Source: Sphyrna mokarran (taxonomy: Eukaryota). Taken from it: a DNA stretch of 64,000 nt. The notes under the pieces are model-generated. The model saw only the letters and a program-made list of their open reading frames with translations. It was not told the origin of the DNA and did not search any database. Shown here one piece after another: positions 2,310 to 64,000 of the stretch. The translations under genes were made by a program, and so were the position numbers. The first letter of the stretch is position 1. The number at the start of each line of letters is the position of its first letter. The stretch is from assembly GCA_024679065.1 (NCBI GenBank), contig JAGIQG010000002.1, positions 68,014,001-68,078,000 of the forward strand. Direction: 5' to 3'.

Positions 2310-2630
2310 AGACTCCTTCGACAGCACCTCCAAACTTGTAACCTTTACTACATAGAAGGGCAAGGGCAGCAGATGCATGGGAATGTCAGCACTGGCAAGT
2401 TCCCCATACAAACCATACACAAGCCAGAACAATATCGGCATTCCTTCACTATCAGTGAGTCAAAATCCTGCAAAATCCTCCCTCCCCAATAGCACTCTGG
2501 GTGTATTTACACTACATTGACAGCACGTCTGAGAAGGTGGCTCACCAACATCTTAAGAGCAATTCAGGGTGGGTAACAAATGCTGACATTGCCTGCAATG
2601 CCAACATCATGTGAAAGAATAAAACATATA
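2310..2630 (+). mobile_element. 3' end of CR1-group (L2/Crack-like) LINE
   Basis: Same 3' sequence as 18750-19060 and 14030-14145, ending in an A-rich tail. Confidence 0.65.
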
Positions 2631-2704
2631 AATAATAACAAACAAAAATAAAGCTAAGTTAATGCCCGCAGGAAATCTGGACTATGCACAGGACTTTAAT
2701 ATGT

Positions 2705-3612
2705 CTTCTGCAATTATCCTCAACTCTGGTGCCCTGCAAGACTATGCCCTCAGCCTTTTAATACCTTCCTTAAACATTTATGACTATGTGACCAAATTCT
2801 ACTCCAAGTCCATTTTCAAGTTTGCTGGTGACACTATCGTAGTCGGTTGGATCTCAAACAATGGCGAGACGGAATACTGGAAAGAATAGATAATCGGGTG
2901 AAATGTGTGACGACAATAATCTCTTCCTCCATATCAGTAAAATGAAGGTGATAGTCATCGACTTCAGGAAACATAATGGAGGACATTCCCTTGTCTACAT
3001 CAATGGGGATAAAGTGGAAATGATCGACAGCTTCAAGTTTCTAGGCGTCCAAATTAAAAACAAGCTTTCCTAGTCCTCCATATGATGCTATTGTTAAGAA
3101 ACTTCACTAACATCTCTACTTTCTCAGGAAGCTAAGGAAATTTGGATGTCCTCTAAGACTCTGACCAATTTTATAGATGCACCATTGAAAGCATGTTTTC
3201 TGGATATATCACAGCTTGGTATGGCTCCTGCTCTGACTAAGACCACAGGAAACTATATCCATCAAATCCATCTATATTTCCCACTGCTTTGGAAAAGCAG
3301 CCAGCAAATCAAGGACCCCACACACTGACATTTTCTCTTCCACCTTTTTCCCTTGAAAAAAAATACAAACATCTGAGGTCTCATACCAACCGACTTCAGA
3401 ACAACTACTTCCGTGCTGCCATTAGGCTTTTGACTATTACATTAAGTTGATATTTCTCTACAATCTAATTATGACTGTAACACTATATTCTGCATCCTTT
3501 CCTTTCCTTCTCCCCAATGTACTCTATGAACAGTATGCTTGTCTGTATAGCAGGCAAGAAACAATATTTTTCACTGCATCCCAACATATGTGACAACAGT
3601 AAATTAAACAGT
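2705..3612 (+). mobile_element. Rex1/Babar-like LINE 3' fragment
   Basis: Degenerate GAxQ..LSxL and KFAGD RT motifs; collinear with 27095-28030. Confidence 0.75.
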
Positions 3613-3614
3613 AA

Positions 3615-4340
3615 AAAATTGCAGCATGCTGCTGTGCAGAGGGACTTGGGTGTCTTTGTGCAAATCTTAAGGGGTTGGTTTGCAGGTACAGCAGATAATT
3701 TAGAAGGCAAATGGAATTTTATCCTTCATTGCTGGAGGGATGGAGTTTAAAAACAGTGATGTTATGTTGCAGCTGCATAAGATTCTGGTGAGGCCACACC
3801 TGGAAGACTATGTACAGTTTTCTCTTTATTTGAGAAAAGATACAAGCACTGGAAGGGGTGTAGAGGAGATTCACAAGATTGATTCCAGAGTTGAGAGGGT
3901 TGGCTTACGAGGAGAGACTGAGTAGACTGGGGCTATACTCATTGGAATTCAAAAGAATGAGGGGAGATCTTATAGAAACATATAAGATTATGAAGGGAAT
4001 AGAAAAGATAGAAGCAGAGAAGTTGCTTCCATTGGCAGATGAAACTAGAACTAGGGGGCATAGCCTCAAAATAAGAGAAGCAGATTTAGGGCTGAGTTAA
4101 GGAGGAACTTCTTCACACAAAGGGTTACAAATCTGTGGAATTCCCTGCCTAGTGAAGTAGTTGAGGCTACCTCATTGAATGTTTTTAAAGCAAGGATAGA
4201 TGAATTTTTGAACAGTAAAGGAATTAAGAGTTATGGTGAGCAGGCAGGTAAGTGGAGCTGAGTTCACAAAAAGATCAGCCATGATCTTATTGAATGGTGG
4301 AGCAGGCTCGAGGGGACAGATGGCCTACTCCTACTCTTTC
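3615..4340 (+). mobile_element. CR1 LINE 3' fragment
   Basis: LVRPHLE, YEERL..LGLYSLE..R.RGDLIE, TRGH motifs and CR1 3' UTR. Confidence 0.88.
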
Positions 4341-5395
4341 AACATATAGTAGCTTGATTATATAAATTAGTTAAGTATAAATAGTAGAGAAATTTCTTGG
4401 TATGATATAAGGAATGACTTCACAAGAGAAACAGCAGTATTGGGTTCACATTATGCGAGTGGATATGCTGTTTCACATTATCAATAGTTATCCAGAAGAA
4501 ATATTGCAATTTTCAGTCGCTTAATGGAGCAAAAGGAATCTGAATATCTTCCAATTTTATTTAATGTTCCTCTTTAATCCTTTGTGCTCTTCACCATTAA
4601 TTAGGTATATAATTCCATCCTGATTTCACTTGCACAGAATGTAGGACTATCCACAACTAAGTCGAGTAATATTGACTGACATGCTGCAATTTCTTTTTGA
4701 TATAATTCCAGTCAATTTCAATCATCTGAAGTGAATGGAATAAATTTCACTTGAGCTTTAATTTTCCCATTTTCTAGGAAGCAGAAAATTCAATAAATCA
4801 GGAAATGTATTTTTTTATTTCTTTTCACAGAAGGGGAAGATTATCAAGCATTTGCATGCCAGTAAATATATTGCAAAATATCAATAACGTTTTAATTAAG
4901 GAAAAGAAGATTATGCTTGGTTACAATATGTGGGGATAAATGTCACGTACAAGTAGATTCTGATCATTTTCATTCCTTTTTGAGCTGCCCCTATTGAAAA
5001 TTTCAACATTATTTAATCTCAGTAATGTATTTGAGAAGTTATTTAAAACACTATTGTCTTGTCAGTGAGCTGGTATGTGAGACATTTGACAATTGCTTAC
5101 CCACATTCTGCATTAGATGGTGTAATTTAAAACACAATGGCCTTAATGTTTCACCTCCAGCAGTCTGCAACACATTCCATAAATATAAAGAAATAATTTA
5201 TAATATCATGACCCAGACCATGTGTAAATGTTAAAAGTGCAAAAAAAAAGCAGTGTGTTAAATGCCACAATGGATTAAGTCCCTGAAAAAAGCAATCCCA
5301 ATGTGTTTCAGTGCAAGCTTGGTATCAGTTCAGTATCAAGTTCATTAAATAGAAAAATTGTAAATTGGTTTCTAGACTACTATCAGCCAGAACCA

Positions 5396-5979
5396 GTGGG
5401 AATAGAGCTCTTACAGCATATTTCCTTTGCTGCAACTCCAGTGTAACAGCACAGGAATAATTTGTTCTATCCACATTCACAGCAAGCAGTCTTGTCCTTC
5501 AGGGTTATAGGCAGTGTTTTCCTGCGGTGTTCAGAGCCTCAACATTGGGGCTGGATGGAAGGACCAAGCCTAGACTGGCCAGGAGCCTGACTGTGAAAGC
5601 TGTTTCCCCAGAGATAGCCTACATAGAAACATAGAAGATAGGAGGAGGCCATATGGCCCTTTGAGCCCGCTCCACCATTTATTGAGTTGGATGATCAGCC
5701 ATGATCGTAATAGCCTAACCCCGCTTTCTCCCCATAACTTTTGATCCCAATCACCCCAAGTGCTATATCCAATTGCCTCTTGACTACATTCAATTTTTTT
5801 GGCATCAACTAGACTTCTATCCAGCCCCAAAGTTGAGGCCCTGAATACCACAAGCAAACACTGCCTATAACCTTCAAGGACAAGACTGCCTGCTGTGAAT
5901 GCGGATAGAACAAATTATTCCTGTGTTGTTACACTGGAGCTGCAGCAAAGGAAATATGCTGTAAGACCACTATTCCCAC
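5396..5979. repeat. Inverted repeat, ~166-bp arms (5396-5561 / 5814-5979)
   Basis: Arms are reverse complements at roughly 90% by eye. Confidence 0.9.
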
Positions 5980-6440
5980 AGAGTCACCACTCTAAGTGAA
6001 GAAATGTCTCCTCACCTCTGATCTTAGTGGTCTACCCTGAATCCTCAGACTGTGATCCCTTCTGGATTCCCCCACCGTTGGGAATATTCTCCCTGCATTT
6101 ACACTGTCTAATCCTGTTAGAATTTTATAACAGGTTTACAAGCTGATTCCAGGGATGGTGGAGCTGATGTATGAGGAGAGATTGACTAGGTTCAAGACTG
6201 TTTTTGCTGGAGTTCAGATGAATGAGGCAGGATCTCGTAGAGACTTAGAATTTTATAATTTGAAAAGCATCCATTAATTCTTATTCTTTGTTTTGTACCC
6301 ATCTGAATACACTCCCCCCAATCCCATGTGTTTTAATCTTGTATAATAATCTCTTGTGCGGGACTTGTCCGACACTTTTTGGAAGTCCAAATATACCATA
6401 TCTTCTGATTCCCCCTTGTCAACACTACTAGTTACATCTG
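5620..6440 (-). mobile_element. Rearranged CR1 remnant (contains a templated insertion and an internal inversion)
   Basis: Reverse-strand CR1 tail (acatagaaacatagaa) and YLDFQK..DK RT remnant; 6131-6244 is in the opposite orientation. Confidence 0.75.
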
Positions 6441-6446
6441 TGTAAA

Positions 6447-6925
6447 ATGCAGGATGCCTGGCTGACCACCAAGGCAGATGAAATACAGGGATATGCTGAC
6501 AGAAACGACTTGAAACGGTTCTATAAAACCCCTCAACACTCTCTACGGACCTTAATCTCTCAGTAGCTCCCCACTCCTGAGTACAGATAGTACAACTCAT
6601 TATAGAGAGGGCTCAAATCCTGCCGAGATGGGCTGAACATTTTAAAGCTGTTTTCAATCAAATGTCATCTATTAACGATGAGGCAATAGACAGGCTTCCC
6701 CAGGTTGATATCAACAGCATCAGGGATGACCCACTGGTAGTAGCCAAAGTCACGAAAGTTGTCAGCCAGCTATCCAATGGCAAAGCCCCAGGGGTAGACC
6801 CCTTACCTGCAGAGATATACAAAGCTGCTGGTCTTTTACTCATCAAGAAGCTCACTGAGTTGTTCCAGTCCTTTTGGAAGCAAAGGTCCATTCCTCAGGA
6901 ACTTAAAGATGCTTCTATTGTACAC
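6447..6925 (+). mobile_element. RTE-clade LINE internal ORF fragment
   Basis: RWAEHF, NGKAPGVDPLPAEIYK, IPQELKDASIVH are typical of the RTE ORF upstream of the RT domain. Confidence 0.75.
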
Positions 6926-7686
6926 CAGATGGCCAATCTGGGGTCCCCAGAACATTCATTGAGTTTCTAGATTAATAACAGTCTAGTGATAATACCCTAG
7001 GCCATTGCCTCCCTCTAGAATTTTGCACTCTTACTAAACAAACAGTCAGGTAGAGCTACCCTAGCTCTCTACTTGGCAAATGGAAACAATTTCCTGGAGC
7101 TATTTAAAAATTTAGATTATTAATTTGTGTCAATTATTTATATACTTGAGACAAATCAACAACATCAAAAACAAGCTGTGTGCATACAGTGCCTTTAATG
7201 TCGTAAAATGTCCCAAGGTACTTCATAGGCAAGCTACCAAGCAATAATGATACTGATCTACTTAATGGGCTATTTGGCCTGATGATCAAATGCTGCTCAG
7301 TGAGGTAGCAAAGGAAAGAAAGAGAGTTGGTGAGATTTGAGGAATTCCCAGTGGTTAGTGACAGTGAAGTGATTAAAATCAGGGAGCTCAAAGGATGGAG
7401 GAGCACTAATATCTCAGAGGGGTGTTGGATTGGAAGAAATTGCAGAGCTAGAAATGGGTGATGCTATGAAGAGATTTGCAAACAAGAAAGTGAATTTTAA
7501 AATCCAGCTATTGATTCACCAGGAGCCAAATCTAATTGCTTTTGTAATTTGCAACTGTAGATAAAGTTTTTATTGTTGATGCCTGCAGCCTGTCAGCTCA
7601 CTATACTATAGTTATTCAGGAACTAATCTGATCTGCTCTGAACAGATTTCTCAGTAAAAATCACATTTCAACATGAAAATCACTGG

Positions 7687-7726
7687 TGGGGGGGGGGGGG
7701 GGGGGAGGGAGGGAGGGAGGGAGGGA
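7687..7726 (+). repeat. Poly-G plus (GGGA)n simple repeat
   Basis: Directly visible. Confidence 0.85.
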
Positions 7727-7809
7727 AGAGAAAAGAAAGCACATTGCAATCACCGACACAACAAATATTCCACGCCAACTTTCGATCCATGGTTCACATT
7801 TAGCTAAAC

Positions 7810-8780
7810 CATAGTCATACGGTGCAGAAAAGACCCTTCGGCCCTCAAGTTTTGCACTGGACAATAACTACCACTCAAGGCACTCTAATCCCATTTTCCT
7901 ACACTTGTCCCATATCTTTAAATGTTATGATATTTCAAGTGCTCATCCAAATATTTTTTTAAAGATTATAAGATTTCCAGTCTCTCCTGTCTTCCTAGAC
8001 AGTGCATTCCAGATTCTCACCACTCTGAGTGGAGAAGTTTTTTTTCCCCTAAAATCCTCTCTAAATATCCTGCCCCTCACCCAAAAACTATGCACCCTTG
8101 TAATTGATCCCTCAATCAAGGGAAAGCTACTCACTCACCCTGTCTACATCATTCATAATCTTTTACACCTCAATCACGGTTTTCCTTAGCCTATTCTGCT
8201 CTAAAGAAAACAAGGTAAGAAGTCCCACAATACCAAGTTAAAGTCCAACAGGACTATTTGTAACAAACACCACTAGCTTTCAGAACTAGCTGTTCCTTCA
8301 CCAAATAGGTAGGAGTTCCAATCACAAACAGGATATATAAAGACACAACTCAATTTACATAAATAATGATTTGAATGTGAGTCCTTACAGCTAATCAAGT
8401 CTTAAAGGTATAGACAATGTGAGATTTAACCTGGTGTTGAGAGACTTCTTACGGTGTTTACTCCAGTCCAACACTGGCATCTCTTGAGTCATGACTAAAG
8501 AAAACAATCCAAGCCTACCTAGTCTCTCCTTATAGCTCAAATGCTCCAACCCAGGCAACATCCTGGTGAACCTCCTCCAGCCCCTTGAGGGCAATCACAT
8601 CTTTCCTGTAGTGAGATGACCAGAACTGCACACAGTACTCTTACTTTGTCCTAACCAACTCTCTGTATAAATCCAGCATTCCCTCCTTGTACTCTATACC
8701 ACAACTTATGAGAGCAAGTATTCCAAATGCCTTCTTAAAAATCCTTTTCGCACACTCTGCCACCTTCAGGGATCTGTGAA
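7810..8780 (-). mobile_element. CR1 3' fragment interrupted by a short Penelope-like insertion
   Basis: RRFTRMLPGLEHLSYKERLGRLGLFSL and RVVRIWNAL motifs. Confidence 0.82.
8214..8494. mobile_element. Short non-autonomous Penelope-like element with 13-bp target-site duplication
   Basis: CTAAAGAAAACAA at 8201-8213 and 8495-8507; partially inverted ends; decayed hammerhead-like core. Confidence 0.65.
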
Positions 8781-9872
8781 TGGAAATGCAATCAGTGCAA
8801 GTTGTTTTTCATGATGACCTTTAAGGGTCAATTTTCTGTGTTCTCATGTAATTAGCTATGGTGCATTCTGCAAGCACATAACAGACGTTTCCATTCAGAG
8901 GAAAGTTGAGAGCAATATATAAGATTTGAGCATGACTTGCTGTGACTGTGAAGTTTAATATTCTATTGGCATTCAACATAGTGATTGCTCAGCCCACTAA
9001 GATTCCTATGTTTCTTTCAACTTCATCCTTTAGATTTTCAATACTACTCATTTTCTCTTCCTTTGCTTATCTGTTTAGGCCACTTGGATGTTTTGCCCAA
9101 ATCACTTTCAAATTCTCCAGCTGCCTCCTCAAATTCCAGTGCTTCTTTTAGAATTCGACAAATTTGCATCTTGCTTTTGAAGCCAAAATGTTAATGCAAA
9201 TGAGAATTTGTTGGGATCCCAACACAATCTGCAGGTCATTCCAGTCAGTGTTTTGATGTGTTAGTTGTCGGATTTCATTGCTAAATGGCTGAATTTCTAT
9301 TTTACAGAACGGGCTGTGAAACCTATGATCCAAAACCACTTATTAATCTTTTAAGTTCCACTCAAATCTTTGCCATCTTTGACCTATATTTTTACTATTG
9401 CTGCCAATAGCAAATCAGGAGAACATTACAAATTACCTAGAATATACAGCACAGAATCAGGCCATTCAGCCCAGCTCTGTGTTAGTGTTTATGCTCCACA
9501 AACTTCCTCCCAGTCTACTGAAGTTCCAGACCAGGCCTGTATTCAATTTATCAGATTTCCAACTTCTGCAGTATTTATTTCATTTTTGCACAATAAATTC
9601 TGGTTTGGACAAGAGCAGGGAATTTCACCAATCCAGTCATCGATGCACTGGATAAAGAGAGGGAAGGGACCCAAGTGTTACTGAAACCAAGAATGTTTCA
9701 TATATCCCATGAAAAGACAGACATAATTAAGGTGTTTCATGGAATTGTCTTTTTCTCTTCCAAAGGGAGCTCTGAATAAACCTTCTCCCATATCAATCTG
9801 ATATGCTTAGATTGTGGCTGGTCAGACATTCTGCAATATCAAATTCATGTGTTCCAAGAAGTCTCACAGCAG

Positions 9873-10204
9873 TGCGACAGCACGATGGCACAGTGGTTAG
9901 CATTGCTCCCTCATTGTGCCAGGAACCTAGGTTTGATTCCTTGCTTGGGTCACTGTCTGTGCAGAGTCTGCACGTCTTCCCTATATCTGCATGAGTTTCC
10001 TCTGGGTGCTCCAGCTTTCTCCCACAATCCAAAGATGTGCGGGCTTAGGCGGATTGGCCGTGCTAAATTGCCCCTTGGTGTTAGGGGGACTAGCTAAGGT
10101 AAACACATGGGTTTTTGGGGATAAGGCCTGGGTAGAATTGGGGGCAGTGAAGATATGTTGAGCTGAATGGCTTCCTTCTGCACTATAGATTCTGTGCTCT
10201 ATGA
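9873..10204 (+). mobile_element. HE1-like tRNA SINE (CR1-type tail A)
   Basis: A/B box-like head (TGGCACAGTGG, GGTTTGATTCC), core and CR1-like tail. Confidence 0.85.
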
Positions 10205-10484
10205 CCTCATCTTCCCAAAATCAATGTAGGTGCTGGCTCTAACCTGACACCGTCATCTTAATTTACAGGAATCACATGCAATGTAGCCCTACAACTCACA
10301 CTGTCCTCACTTATCAAAGCAAATTGTGCAAACCTGTTGCTGGTAACATAAAATCAATTACAAATGCATTGCTAATAACATATTATGTGCTCTGACTCTT
10401 TCTGGGCAGTTCAATAAATTTGTCACACCTTCTTAATTCCCTGTAATTTATTACTTAAACAGCTCTGCTGATTTCAACCAAAGT

Positions 10485-10611
10485 AAGAAGTCTGACAACA
10501 TCAGGTTTAAATCCAACCGATCGGTTTAAATCCAACCGATATTTGATAGTAAACTCACAAGCTTTCGACTCTATGTGTTTACCCAAGTCCAATGCCGGAA
10601 TCTCTACATCA
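10485..10611. mobile_element. Short non-autonomous Penelope-like element with 16-bp target-site duplication
   Basis: TGATTTCAACCAAAGT at 10469-10484 and 10612-10627; same family as 8214-8494; internal 18-bp duplication. Confidence 0.68.
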
Positions 10612-11094
10612 TGATTTCAACCAAAGTCAGGTCTTCAATTAGTTTCTATCACCACCTCGTTAAACAGTGATTACCTTAATGATGTGAATCGTATCATTGC
10701 AGAGCCTGTGGCTAAGTGAAGAGTTTGAGAATTCTACATCAAGCCTGTATTTAAAAATATATTGATTAAGAATAACTACAGGTTTTACTGTCCACTGTAT
10801 TCAGCAGGCAAATCGTGTTAAAATCAACCTTTTGGCTGTAAGCAGTGGAGATCTAATACTAAAGATGTAGTGCAAATACAGCCTCATCTAAATTTCAATG
10901 AAACAACTGCATTGAATTTCATTCATTTCTAGTATTTGCGATCCTATTTAGCTCAATTGCAGATATTCGGGGGGAACCTTACCACTCCTCACATCCCGGG
11001 ATTTTCCCAGCCTGCCAAGTAAATTTGGCTGGCCACCAAATTCTCCAATCTCAGGACCGTAGTGTGAAAAGGCAGTAAGAATCTATCCACAGTT

Positions 11095-26409: not shown

Positions 26410-28030
26410 CAATACATCCTCGCTGGTGAGCTCAATGCATTCTATACCCATTTTGAGCAAGAGGTCAGCGAAAGCATGCTCTCCACCCTGGAAGCCCTGG
26501 ATGAACCTATATCTGGAGTCACAACTGCAAATATCAGAGCAGTTTTCTTGAAAGTCAACCCACGGAAAAGCAACTGGCCCGAATGGGGTAACCGGATGTG
26601 CCCTCAGATCCTGCACGGTTCAGCTGGTGGAGGTATTCAGAGGCATCTTCAATCTCTCTTTACAACAATGTAAAATCACTATCTGCTTCAAGAAGACGAC
26701 CATCATCCCGATACTTAAGAAAAACCAAGCAGCGTGCCTTAACGACTATCGGCCGGTGGTTCTGACAGCCATCATTATGAAGTGCTTTAAAAGGCACAAA
26801 TCAATTCCAGCTTCCCCGACTACCTGGATACTACTGTTTGCCTGCTGCCTCTACAGGTCTACAGCAGACACCATTTCCCTGGCCCTACATTCAACCCTGA
26901 AAAACCTAGATAACAAGGACACTTAAGTCAGACTCTTATTTATTGACCACAGCTCAGCCTTCAACACTATTATTCCCACAAAAGCTTACCTCCAATCTCC
27001 ATGGCCTGTGCCTTAGTGCGTCCCTCTGTGACTGGATCCTGAATTTTCTAACTCACAGACCACAATCAGTAAGGATAGGCAACAACACCTTCTCCAAGGT
27101 CATCCTCAACACCGGTGCCCCACAGGGTTGTGTTCTCAGTCCCCTACTATACTTCTTATACATAACTGCATGACCAAGTCTCCCTCCAATTCAATTTTTA
27201 AGTTTGCTGACGACACCATCGTAGTGGGTTGGATCTCAAACAATGACGAGATAGAGTACAGGAACGAGATAGAAAATCTGGTGAACTGATGCAGTAACAA
27301 TAATCTCTCCCTCAATGTCAAGAAAATAAAGGAGATTGTCATCGACTTCAGGAAATATAAAGGAAAACATTCCCCTGTCCACATTAATGGGGATGAAATA
27401 GAAACTGTCAACAGCTTCAAGTTTTTAGGTGTCCCGATCACCACCAACCTGTCCTGGTCCCCCCATGCCAACACGATAGTTAAGAAAGCCCACCAATGCC
27501 TCTATTTTCTAAGAAGACTAAGGAAATTTGGCATGTCAGCTATGACTCACACCAACTGTCACAGATGCACCATAGAAAGCATTCTTTCTGCTTGCAGGAA
27601 CCATACTAACCTGTAATACAAAAAAACTGCAAAAGGTTTTGAATGTAGCCTAATCCATCATGCAAACCAGCCTACCATCCACTGACTCTGTCTATACTTC
27701 CCACTGCCTCAGCAAAACAGCCAGCATAATTAAGGACGCCACACACTCTGGACATTCTCTCTTCCACCTTCTTCCATTGGGAAAAAGATACAGAAGTCTG
27801 AGGTTACGTACCAACTGACTCGAACACCTCCTTCCTGCTGCTAACAGACTTTTGAATGGATGTACCTTGCATTAAATTGATTTTTCCCCACACCCTAGCT
27901 TTGACTATAACACTATGTTCTGCACTCTCTCATTTCCTTCACTATGAAGAGTATATTTTGCCTGGATAGCGCACAAGAAACAATACTTTTTCACTGTTTG
28001 TTAATATATTGACAATAATAAATCAAGTCA
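26410..28030 (+). mobile_element. Rex1/Babar-like LINE, 5'-truncated, degenerate RT
   Basis: [26 protein letters not shown] motifs; tail aataataaatcaagtcaaa. Confidence 0.85.
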
Positions 28031-28338: not shown

Positions 28339-28657
28339 ATCACTTCTCAGCCTTTTGGCTAAGATCAAGCGTAGTATCGACATGCTGTACTTGGTTGAAG
28401 TCATTAAGTTACATTTTAGTTACATTTGAAGCAATTTTTTAAAGCAACATCTTGACCTTTTGGTTAAGATGCAAATGAGATCAAGCCTTGGAGGCGGGGC
28501 TATGCCTCCTCCAATCAGGTTGGATCATGTAGATCAAGCCCAAGACAGGAGACAAGAACCCTGTCTTGTCAGCTTGGATTGGGAATGTCTCAACTTGTTG
28601 GGACTCTGAATTGGATTTGAATTGATTGGATTGAATTGGAATAAAGAATAAAAAAAA
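28339..28657 (+). mobile_element. U2 snRNA-headed SINE-like retroposon / retroposed U2-variant RNA
   Basis: 28339-28378 matches U2 nt 1-40 at 37/40 (ATCACTTCTCAGCCTTTTGGCTAAGATCAAGCGTAGTATC); the body is not canonical U2 and has several hairpins; tail (TTGAA/TTGGA)n + AATAAAGAATAAAAAAAA. Confidence 0.7.
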
Positions 28658-29634
28658 GTGTTCAAGCCAGAAATATGCAAATGACCGTATTCACAGTATA
28701 GATGTGTGGAATGCCCTGGAGCTCGGAAACTGACGCATTTCCTTCCATTCAAAATCTGGACAACGAAATAGAATCCCGTTAGTCCAAATCAATTCAATAA
28801 GAACTTTAGACAAAAACTTTCATTTTTTAAATCCTATAACAGACAGGATTGCCAAGATACTAATTAATTTCCTATAGATTCTAATGAGAAAATTGTTTTA
28901 TTAAGAACTATTTAATTGATGGATTTAAGTATTTTAAGCAAAAGCTAATTCATTTGCAGTTCATACTGAAACATTGTTGAGAGTATTTCATAAGTTAATT
29001 TGATACATTTTAGTTGTTTCAATTCCCTTATAACAATGCACTCCTATTATCATAGGGCAAATTAATTCCTAGAGAGATTAATATGCACTCTTTTTACATA
29101 TTTTTGCAAGAAAAACAGACCAACTCAATTGCAGGAAAGGAAAATTTGGGCTTAATGGATAATAAGTAAGAGATGAAAATAGATGAAATTTTCATCTGAG
29201 GTTTCTTGTCCTACTTTAAGGCAGTCAAAAGAGTAGTCTACGTATTACTAATGATTTCACAGATGCACTTAGAGAAAAACATTTGGCATAGGTTTTATAC
29301 ATTTATCCTGTGTTTTCTACTGTTTTGTGCTGGATAAATTTGTAGACACAAATCTATGACAAATATGCCAAGTTTATTTGGTGCAATTTTTGGACCACTC
29401 AACTTCTGATGACATTGCAGCCTTGATCCAAATATGGACAAAACAGCTGATCTCAAGAGATGAGGTGAGAATTGGAGTGTAATGAGATAATAGAATAATT
29501 ACGGTAATGAGTGCTGTGACCGACACTCAAGAGAGAGGATGGAATAGTATGTATTCGTGAGAGACACATCCATTCTGTAACTTACATCTAGTCTTTAGTA
29601 ACTACTTGAGTCAAGATTGCAGTCACAGCTGATT

Positions 29635-62075: not shown

Positions 62076-64000
62076 CAATAACACTTGAACTTCGATGTTG
62101 TGGCCATTTCAGAGACTTGGGTAGAGCAGGGACAAGAATGGATGTTGCAGGTTCTGGGGTTCAAATGCTTTAGTCGGAGTAGAGAAGGAGGTAGAAGGGG
62201 GGGAGGAGTGGCATTATTAGTCAAAGACTGTATCACAGTGACAGAAAGGAAGTTTGATGAGGACTTGTCTGTTGAGGTAGTATGGGCTGAGATTAGAAAC
62301 AGGAGAGGAGAGGTCACCCTGTTGGGAGTCTTTTATAGACCTCCTAAAAGTTCTAGAGAGGTAGAGGAAAGGATTGCAAAGTCGATCCTGGACAGGAGTG
62401 AAAGTAATAGGGTAATTGTTATGGGGGACTTTAACTTTACTAATATTGATTGGAATAGCTATAGCTCTAGCTCGTTAGAGGGGTCAGTTTTTGTACAAAG
62501 TGTGCAGGAAGGTTTTTTGACTCAGTATGTAGATAGGCCAACTAGAGGTGAGGCTACATTGGATTTGGTGCTGGGCAATGAGCCAGACCAGGTGTTAGGC
62601 TTGGAAGTTAGTGAACATTTTGGTGATAGTGACCACAATTCGGTTACGTTCACCTTAGTGATGGATAGGGATAGGCATGAAGCTGGGGGCAGTAGTTATA
62701 GCTGGGGGAAGGGTAATTATGAGGCCATCAGGAGAGAATTAGGGTGCATAGATTGGACTAGGAAACTACAGGGACTGGGAACATCTGAAATGTGGAGCTT
62801 ATTCAAGGAGCAGCTGCTGCGAGTCCTTGATAAGTATGACCCTGTCAGGCAAGGAGGAAATGGTCGAGTAAGGGAACCTTGGTGTATGAAAAAATTTGAT
62901 TCGCTGGTTAAAAGGAAAAAGGAGGCTTATGTCAGGATGAGGCTTGAAGGCTCAGTTAGTGCAATGGATAGCTATAGATTAGCCAGGAGGGAGCTAAAGA
63001 GTGAATTGAGGAGAGCTAAGAGAGGACACGAGAAGACTTTGGCTGATAGGATTAAGGAGAATCCTAAAGCTTTCTTTAGATATATTAAGAATAGAAGATT
63101 GGTTAGGACAAGATTAGGGCCAGTCATAGACAGCAGTGGGAAGTTGTGCGTGGAGCCTGAAGAGATTGGAGAGGCACTGAATAAATATTTCTCTTCGGTA
63201 TTCACGCAGGGTGATGTAAATGTAGTTATGGAGAACACTGAGGTACAGGGTAGCAAACTGGAAGGTATCGAAGTAGATAGGGAGGATGTGCTAGATATTC
63301 TCGAGGGTTTGAAGTTGGATAAGTCCCCTGGGCCGGACGGGATTTACCCTAGGATTCTCTGGGAGGCAAGAGAGGAGATTGCAGAGCCTCTGGCTCTGAT
63401 CTTCAGGTCGTCGTTGGTTACGGGTGTGGTTCCGGAGGACAGCGAATGTGGTCCCATTGTTCAAGAAGGGGAAGAGAGACCTTCCAGGGAATTATAGGCC
63501 AGTGAGTCTTACTTCTGTTGTGGGCAAAGTATTGGAGAGAATTATTAGGGATAGGATTTATAGTTATTTAGAGAGAAATGAATTGATTGGGGATAGTCAG
63601 CATGGTTTTGTGAAGGGTAGGTCGTGCCTTACTAACCTCATTGAGTTTTTTGAAAAAGTGACCAAAGAGGTGGATGGGGGTAAGGCGGTTGATGTGGTAT
63701 ATATGGACTTTAGTAAGGCGTTTGATAAGGTGGCCCATGGAAGACTTCTGCAGAAAATGCAGATGTATGGGATAGAGGGTGATTTAGCTAATTGGATAGG
63801 AATTGGCTAGCAGATAGAAGACAGAGGGTGGTGGTTGATGGGAGATATTCATCGTGGAGTTCGGTGACAAGTGGTGTGCCTCAGGGGTCTGTTTTGGGGC
63901 CCCTGCTGTTTGTATTTTTTATAAATGATCTGGATGAGGGTATTGAAGGATGGATTAGTAAATTTGCAGATGACACTAAAGTCGGTGGAGTGGTAGATAG
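62076..64000 (+). mobile_element. Young 5'-truncated CR1 LINE ORF2 (APE endonuclease + RT), frameshifted, antisense in an MTRR intron; runs off the window
   Basis: ISETW, GGGVA, YRPP, GDFN, LDL, SDHN endonuclease motifs; [38 protein letters not shown] motifs; frameshifts near 63440 and 63800. Confidence 0.95.

Follow-up and report, generated by a model that had tools for sequence, protein, structure and literature searches.

A decayed U2-headed retroposon of the shark Sphyrna mokarran shares its target preference with a Tx1-type LINE

A set of hairpins at positions 28448..28604 of the window—the whole 64,000-nt stretch of Sphyrna mokarran DNA analyzed here—is the 3′ half of one copy of a retroposon dispersed in the genome of this shark. 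RAG1 likewise places the host among sharks, with 89-92% identity to three sharks, as compared to 84-85% to rays and no more than 82% to bony vertebrates. The copy (28339..28657, plus strand) is a decayed but full-length version of a 319-nt element headed by U2 snRNA sequence; it belongs to subfamily A and differs from the family consensus at 21 positions (93.4% identity). With moderate confidence, we propose that copies inside U2 genes were the likely source of the family’s transcripts and that a Keno-like Tx1 LINE likely spread it. Direct observations cover how the element is built, the scatter of poly(A)-bearing copies with target duplications through the genome, insertion at U2 nt 38|39, and a LINE with the same site and a similar head.

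Anatomy and dispersal of the element

The element opens with U2 nt 1–40 (28339..28378; all parts given here lie on the plus strand). Over these 40/40 positions its consensus is identical to the U2 genes of this genome and to U2 snRNA as represented in Rfam (RF00004), of which nt 4–27 are repeated further downstream. Behind the head lies a fold-back arm (28382..28410; element positions 44–72), an imperfect inverted copy of U2 nt 11–39 located upstream of the hairpins first described and predicted to pair with the head, involving many G-U pairs. There follow a small hairpin (28419..28432) of 5 bp in the consensus, broken by two changes in the window copy, a T6 run (28435..28440), and a second U2 piece (28447..28472) that corresponds to nt 4–27, with 23/24 matches in the consensus, and is locked in an extended stem-loop I. 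Module 1 (28478..28526) comprises a basal stem, a C/TCA internal loop and, in the consensus, a 6-bp upper stem; module 2 (28531..28580) has the same basal stem and internal loop, a 9-bp upper stem, and a 10-nt loop that differs from subfamily to subfamily. A last hairpin (28587..28604), in which the pair 28590/28601 is T-G in the window copy, precedes a tail (28605..28657) of degenerate pentamer repeats, AATAAA (28640-28645) and A8.

An Rfam search of the window returned a single match, U2 at 28339-28490, which rests on the first 40 bases (48.9 bits vs a cut-off of 46); with U2 as the sole family matched, a tRNA, 7SL or 5S head is absent by Rfam. At a relaxed threshold, a near-consensus body matched U2 (E 0.023) and, by chance, a lncRNA, with no ribozyme or other family. 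The element lacks U2 nt 41–191 as well as the Sm site, for which there was no match anywhere in it, and the dispersed copies lack the promoter. No convincing target duplication was found in the flanks of the window copy. Elsewhere in the window, two copies of another LINE remnant (2705-3607 and 27089-28026; 70% identity) are present, one of them ending 310 bases before the element, and long LINE frames at 62082-63810 (471 aa, then a shifted RT frame) belong to what we take to be a CR1-like LINE.

Searching the shark’s own genome with 28339-28660 yielded 3,278 first-look candidates, with 84-92% identity in the 40 that were scored. Thirty loci align over the full length, beginning at U2 nt 1 and ending with AATAAA and poly(A), within unrelated flanks. 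The family has at least 1,256 copies, counted as exact genome matches to one pattern of 20 specified bases, and scaling on two samples puts copy number at ~2,600 to 10,700. From the pattern matches, 60 copies were drawn in list order without selection on their flanks (mean identity 88.9%). Their starts fall inside U2 nt 1–40 in 53/60 cases and within nt 1–10 in 32/60, and U2 promoter DNA was found in none (0/60). Only one of the 60 starts after position 100, having been split there by a later insertion; among them was no shorter unit that begins with the second U2 piece. Where both ends were available, flank duplications of at least 8 bases occurred in 10/75 copies, as compared to 1.05% of mismatched flank pairs.

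Copies fall into two subfamilies (A and B) with linked differences, plus intermediates. Internal joints are fixed in both, with the head joint at nt 37–40, and by these fixed joints and linked differences the family is not a sum of independent chimeric pseudogenes. It is probably inactive, as no copy among 82 exceeded 96.1% identity to the consensus, the best value in that set. A second element copy lay within ~600 bases in 5/60 flank-unselected cases (L227, L243, L247, L250, L265; 0.12-0.24 expected), and at L247 an inverted piece of U2 nt 1–107 sits beside the element. A search of sequencing runs gave a lead only: 14 runs of DNA or unknown type, from several organisms, contain 0.21-0.43 of the element’s words, and no RNA run was listed.

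Insertion into U2 genes and the probable partner LINE

Two element copies reside in the 120 kb around the U2 gene cluster. One of these loci (L073; G000:C949, ~17,389,778) reads, in order, U2 promoter homology, a single head, the body, an A-run, U2 nt 40–191 and the 3′ flank of the gene: here a complete U2 gene unit is interrupted seamlessly at nt 38|39, where Keno and Utopia also insert. Given that this copy is decayed (87.5% to subfamily B) and that ~11 bases are missing at the start site, it may have been a dead end rather than a source. Another copy, L052, carries promoter-proximal U2 DNA in register, matching the U2 gene L035 at 22/28 positions (0/2000 shuffles); for the promoter-side match to the genes L031 and L036, the corresponding figures were 57 and 54 of 2000 shuffles. 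At L065 and L189, the element is followed by U2 nt 39–126 and 39–149, respectively, and instead of stemming from read-through transcripts these two copies may have landed in U2 pseudogenes. A genome-wide pattern search for an A-run before U2 nt 41–57 hit five places, namely two elements, two LINE tails and one bare A-run. Targeting of U2 is weak, with a long U2 3′ flank in 0/60 unselected copies and a 10-base piece in 1/60. Our search for an intact, promoter-bearing source copy returned six loci, all of them plain U2 genes; the diverged L073 promoter escaped the same search.

Four near-identical U2 genes lie ~8 kb apart at G000:C949:17326629-17351148 (L031-L034), and two further promoter-bearing U2 genes are found on C224 and C113. 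Many U2 pseudogenes (L037-L047) are devoid of a promoter and have kept ~40 bases of 3′ trailer, suggesting that U2 precursor RNA was retrotransposed. At L060:2878-3607, 3.4 kb from the element-occupied U2 gene, a 5′-truncated Tx1-like tail (~570 bases) is followed by U2 nt 46–191 and trailer.

The candidate partner is a LINE of ~5.2 kb whose reverse transcriptase domain (PF00078) scores over the cut-off and whose putative AP-type endonuclease is seen only through relatives bearing PF03372/PF14529; we class it as Tx1-type, judging from layout, tail and target rather than from a tree. In a minority of LINE copies (L063, L075, L089 and others) the tail runs into U2 nt 39 and beyond, and a long U2 3′ flank was present at 4/30 LINE-tail loci, the query’s own locus included. 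At the other end, 17/26 LINE 5′ ends begin with U2 sequence. These heads vary—U2 to nt 35, U2 to nt 51–58, or U1-like—and in some copies (L144:3540-3640, L145:3680-3750, L166) what we take to be a U1-like head precedes U2 nt 29–52. Such U1-like and U2 heads echo the U1- and U2-headed Tx1 families reported in crocodilians. A duplication of 20 bp would account for heads that reach nt 57–58 alongside flanks that start at nt 39. Truncated LINE tails also form arrays with U2 nt 39–60 between them (L063:1366-1785, L075, L080), a pattern that successive insertions into one site, each duplicating ~20 bp, would produce.

The element and this LINE have a common target preference, borne out by the U2 nt 38|39 joints, by their co-occurrence and by a shared duplication. 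The element was present at 8/30 LINE-tail loci (0.17-0.34 expected), 4/30 LINE-interior loci, 1/26 LINE 5′-end loci and 0/20 U2 gene or pseudogene loci, and it sits directly behind a LINE tail in 2/60 unselected copies vs 0.0003 expected. At L090, one and the same 13-bp duplication occurs three times, flanking the LINE-element pair on both sides and separating its two members. At L182, LINE and element have both inserted into the head of an older copy at position 38|39.

Very probably, the endonuclease and reverse transcriptase of the LINE would mobilize the element in trans. On balance, we also favor a second step in which a rare U2-gene insertion would place the body under the upstream U2 promoter and give rise to a new source copy; because the element carries U2 nt 1–40, the joint formed by such an insertion would be seamless. 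A less likely competitor keeps the same retroposon and LINE while assuming that U2 heads are acquired by template jumps onto U2 RNA, that an upstream host promoter drives transcription, and that the U2-resident copies are dead ends. The accessible text of Kojima 2015 (PMC4494074) argues for template switching and flanking promoters in the crocodilian SINEU elements. Template jumping would also sit well with the variable LINE heads, the common tandem LINE-element joints, and a promoter search that turned up no intact U2-resident source; however, the head joint of the element is fixed at nt 37–40 in both subfamilies, adjoining the insertion site and accompanied by a matching fold-back arm, and two copies (L073 and L052) bear promoter-side U2 DNA in register.

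Folding, decay and selection

In the fold-back arm, all eight transitions leave G-U pairs in the sense RNA (8/18 vs 0/11 sites, p=0.012), and folding of the 5′ domain is confined to the sense strand (z -5.6 vs -1.6). The predicted ensemble loses stem-loop I of the head and pairs branch-site bases 33–38 in subfamily A and 33–36 in subfamily B; by prediction, the arm opens up stem-loop I and masks most, if not all, of the bases that pair with the branch site. The 5′ UTR of the partner LINE opens with an inverted copy of U2 nt 11–29 that places purines opposite A23-A24, as in the element, and in the predicted fold of either RNA the head is paired with the inverted copy behind it, leaving an internal loop at U2 A23-A24. 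With the head held fixed, shuffles folding as well numbered 0/300 for the element and 2/300 for the LINE.

The hairpins of the 3′ half had been described in a sequence-only reading of the window, which took changed sequence with conserved pairing as a sign of selection on RNA structure. All three hairpin pieces lie where that reading placed them, and their fold is indeed better than that of shuffled sequence: the 157-nt stretch reaches -64.5 kcal/mol vs -45.6 +/- 4.05 (z -4.67), with 0/200 shuffles as good. The duplicated basal stems of the modules, their C/TCA loop and their two different upper stems are features of the family, and so is the hairpin at 28587-28604. Other details belong to the window copy: the claimed seventh pair of the module-1 upper stem requires a C at 28508 that is found in 1/82 copies, a change at the neighboring 28495 breaks another pair, and the modules differ (G/C) at 28519 owing to a mutation in this copy, with loss of a basal pair. 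A supposedly compensatory replacement of G-C by A-T at 28455/28464, finally, did not survive comparison with the family. The consensus is G-C, and A-T is a rare chance state produced by two independent transitions: A at the equivalent of 28455 occurs in 6/82 copies with partner T (the window copy left out) and in 7/100 copies with partner C (the first 100 listed of 1,173; Fisher p=1.0). As A is equally frequent with either partner, compensation is rejected here, and the pair that prompted the finding is no part of the evidence.

As to where the modules come from, the earlier idea of duplicated U2 pieces is true of the second stem-loop I, but the modules fit an origin from the 5′ UTR hairpin of the partner LINE equally well. 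This latter derivation is suggestive only and builds on short words. One 30-nt window of this comparison, chosen after the fact, was outranked by just 17 of 3,838 controls, and local alignment of the element body with the LINE 5′ UTR was not significant (463 and 748 of 2000 shuffles). Homology between the upper stems of the two modules was likewise not significant (396/2000 shuffles). For the body as an internal deletion of the LINE, the best blastn hit, in the tail, had an E of 0.02, and local alignment was not significant.

Genomic copies decay neutrally, with private changes at 4.7% in stems and 4.1% in loops. Among 67 copies and 51 pairs—from 70 candidate stretches, three with deletions having been left out of the alignment—there was no covariation, both-side changes numbering 6 vs 7.1 in shuffles (399/500), and RNAalifold on the copies did not recover the modules, giving a different, weak fold instead. 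Of the two outcomes that the sequence-only reading had named as telling against selection, the lack of covariation was thus encountered, whereas folding at the level of shuffled controls was not (z -4.67). What supports selection on RNA structure is neither the changes cited at the outset nor the genomic copies as such, but the variants common to many copies. Shared variants (non-CpG, >12% frequency among 146 copies, mapped on the subfamily-A fold alone) favor loops, affecting 10/165 paired vs 12/83 unpaired sites (p=0.034); without six pairs at loop ends, the counts become 6/153 vs 16/95, in a comparison that is partly circular. Common stem variants retain pairing in 4/6 cases (p=0.16, not significant). 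The pair 28590/28601 occurs across the family as T-A (80), T-G (32), C-G (14) and C-A (4), which is the classical path from T-A through T-G to C-G, but a single lineage event. Taken together, this suggests that selection on structure is visible only among source-level variants.

It has to be weighed whether the hairpins are mechanical products of local duplication and fold-back synthesis on which selection never acted, a reading we regard as unlikely. Such an origin agrees with the missing covariation in the 67 copies and with private mutation rates that are equal in stems and loops. It is also in line with the 108-267 segment, which holds the modules and folds well whichever strand is taken (z -3.4 and -4.5). 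Yet the 5′ domain folds in sense orientation alone, the arm has drifted solely towards G-U pairs, shared variants favor loops at the significance given above, and the stepwise T-A, T-G, C-G series exists, though as one event in one lineage. In our view, the hairpins were probably selected in source transcripts only. More tentatively, the arm might hide the U6-pairing and branch-site bases so that the RNA escapes U2 handling, and the modules, as a duplicated and extended LINE 5′ UTR hairpin, might aid uptake by the LINE proteins.

Transcription and relation to known elements

We consider it very improbable that the body conceals an RNA polymerase III promoter, with an A-box-like 11-mer in the second U2 piece, a B-box-like 9-mer per module arm, and modules duplicated for the sake of their DNA sequence. 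Box patterns do match both consensus sequences (box A once, box B twice), and the A-like box lies ~70 bases before the second B-like box. Against this stand four runs of 4-6 T in the element, one of which overlaps the A-like box, the starts in the first head in 53/60 copies, and the B-like word being largely a consequence of U2’s own sequence. That the element is a functional, variant U2-like snRNA of the host with many pseudogenes is scarcely credible, for although the Rfam U2 match is just above the cut-off and a U-rich run is flanked by hairpins on both sides, that match rests on nt 1–40, an Sm-site match is missing, the predicted fold ties up stem-loop I and most branch-site bases, the RNA would carry AATAAA and poly(A) at its end, none of 82 copies comes closer than 96.1% to the consensus, and none of the six intact-promoter loci contains the element.

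The closest relatives in design are the SINEU-1, -2 and -3 families, which the accessible text of Kojima 2015 (PMC4494074) describes as restricted to crocodilians, none having been found outside this group; the part of PMC5381603 that we could consult also names SINEU for crocodilians only. As far as the accessible description goes, SINEU and the shark element are both short non-coding retroposons with a U2-derived head, more than one U2 piece, an internal duplication, oligo-T runs and a poly(A) tail, and both show duplications of ~10 bp, insert in tandem, and have as partner a Tx1 element that bears U1/U2 heads and shares their target. The two differ in that target, which is Mariner-N4_AMi for SINEU and U2 nt 38|39 in the shark, where copies are found inside U2 gene units, and the shark element has a fold-back arm and hairpin modules, none of which are described for SINEU in the text of PMC4494074 at hand. 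By its architecture—under 500 bp, with an snRNA head, poly(A), duplications and a Tx1 partner—we class the shark family as SINEU-like, outside crocodilians, and do not assign it to SINEU-1, -2 or -3. Literature listings and the opening lines of abstracts named no U2-headed SINE for cartilaginous fishes; the family may already be deposited in Repbase or Dfam or described in a subscription journal.

For the LINE, the nearest comparison is with Utopia and Keno, whose 3′ flank starts at U2 nt 39 according to the portion of PMC4640811 consulted. Judged against that portion, the partner LINE resembles them in its 3′ junction at U2 nt 39, its tandem arrays and a specificity as weak as that of reptile Utopia; by contrast, most partner-LINE copies lie outside U2, and the shark element itself is a non-autonomous passenger. 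A further parallel is with the R2 and R2/R1 SIDEs (PMC3414825), which, in the accessible part of that paper, are short non-autonomous elements that live in the RNA gene a site-specific LINE targets, relying on the machinery of that LINE and on co-transcription. Unlike those SIDEs, the shark element has no ribozyme match and keeps its head rather than having it cut off, and for it an internal deletion of the LINE is only a suggested origin.

This element family extends the SINEU architecture to sharks and provides a defined passenger RNA for studying template choice by a Tx1-type enzyme. How SINEU is transcribed was left open in the accessible text of PMC4494074, since an RNA made from a U1 or U2 promoter does not include that promoter; element copies within U2 gene units, at the site used by Keno and Utopia, offer a concrete answer that can be tested. 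We tentatively envisage a promoter-recapture cycle, in which a promoterless retroposon would carry the 5′ end of its own target gene and renew its source through rare, seamless U2-gene insertions, the arm, similar in design to that of the partner LINE, would disarm the U2 piece, and duplicated modules derived from the LINE 5′ UTR would act as loading handles for LINE proteins. If true, such a cycle would explain the transcription of snRNA-headed SINEs in sharks, and perhaps in crocodilians.
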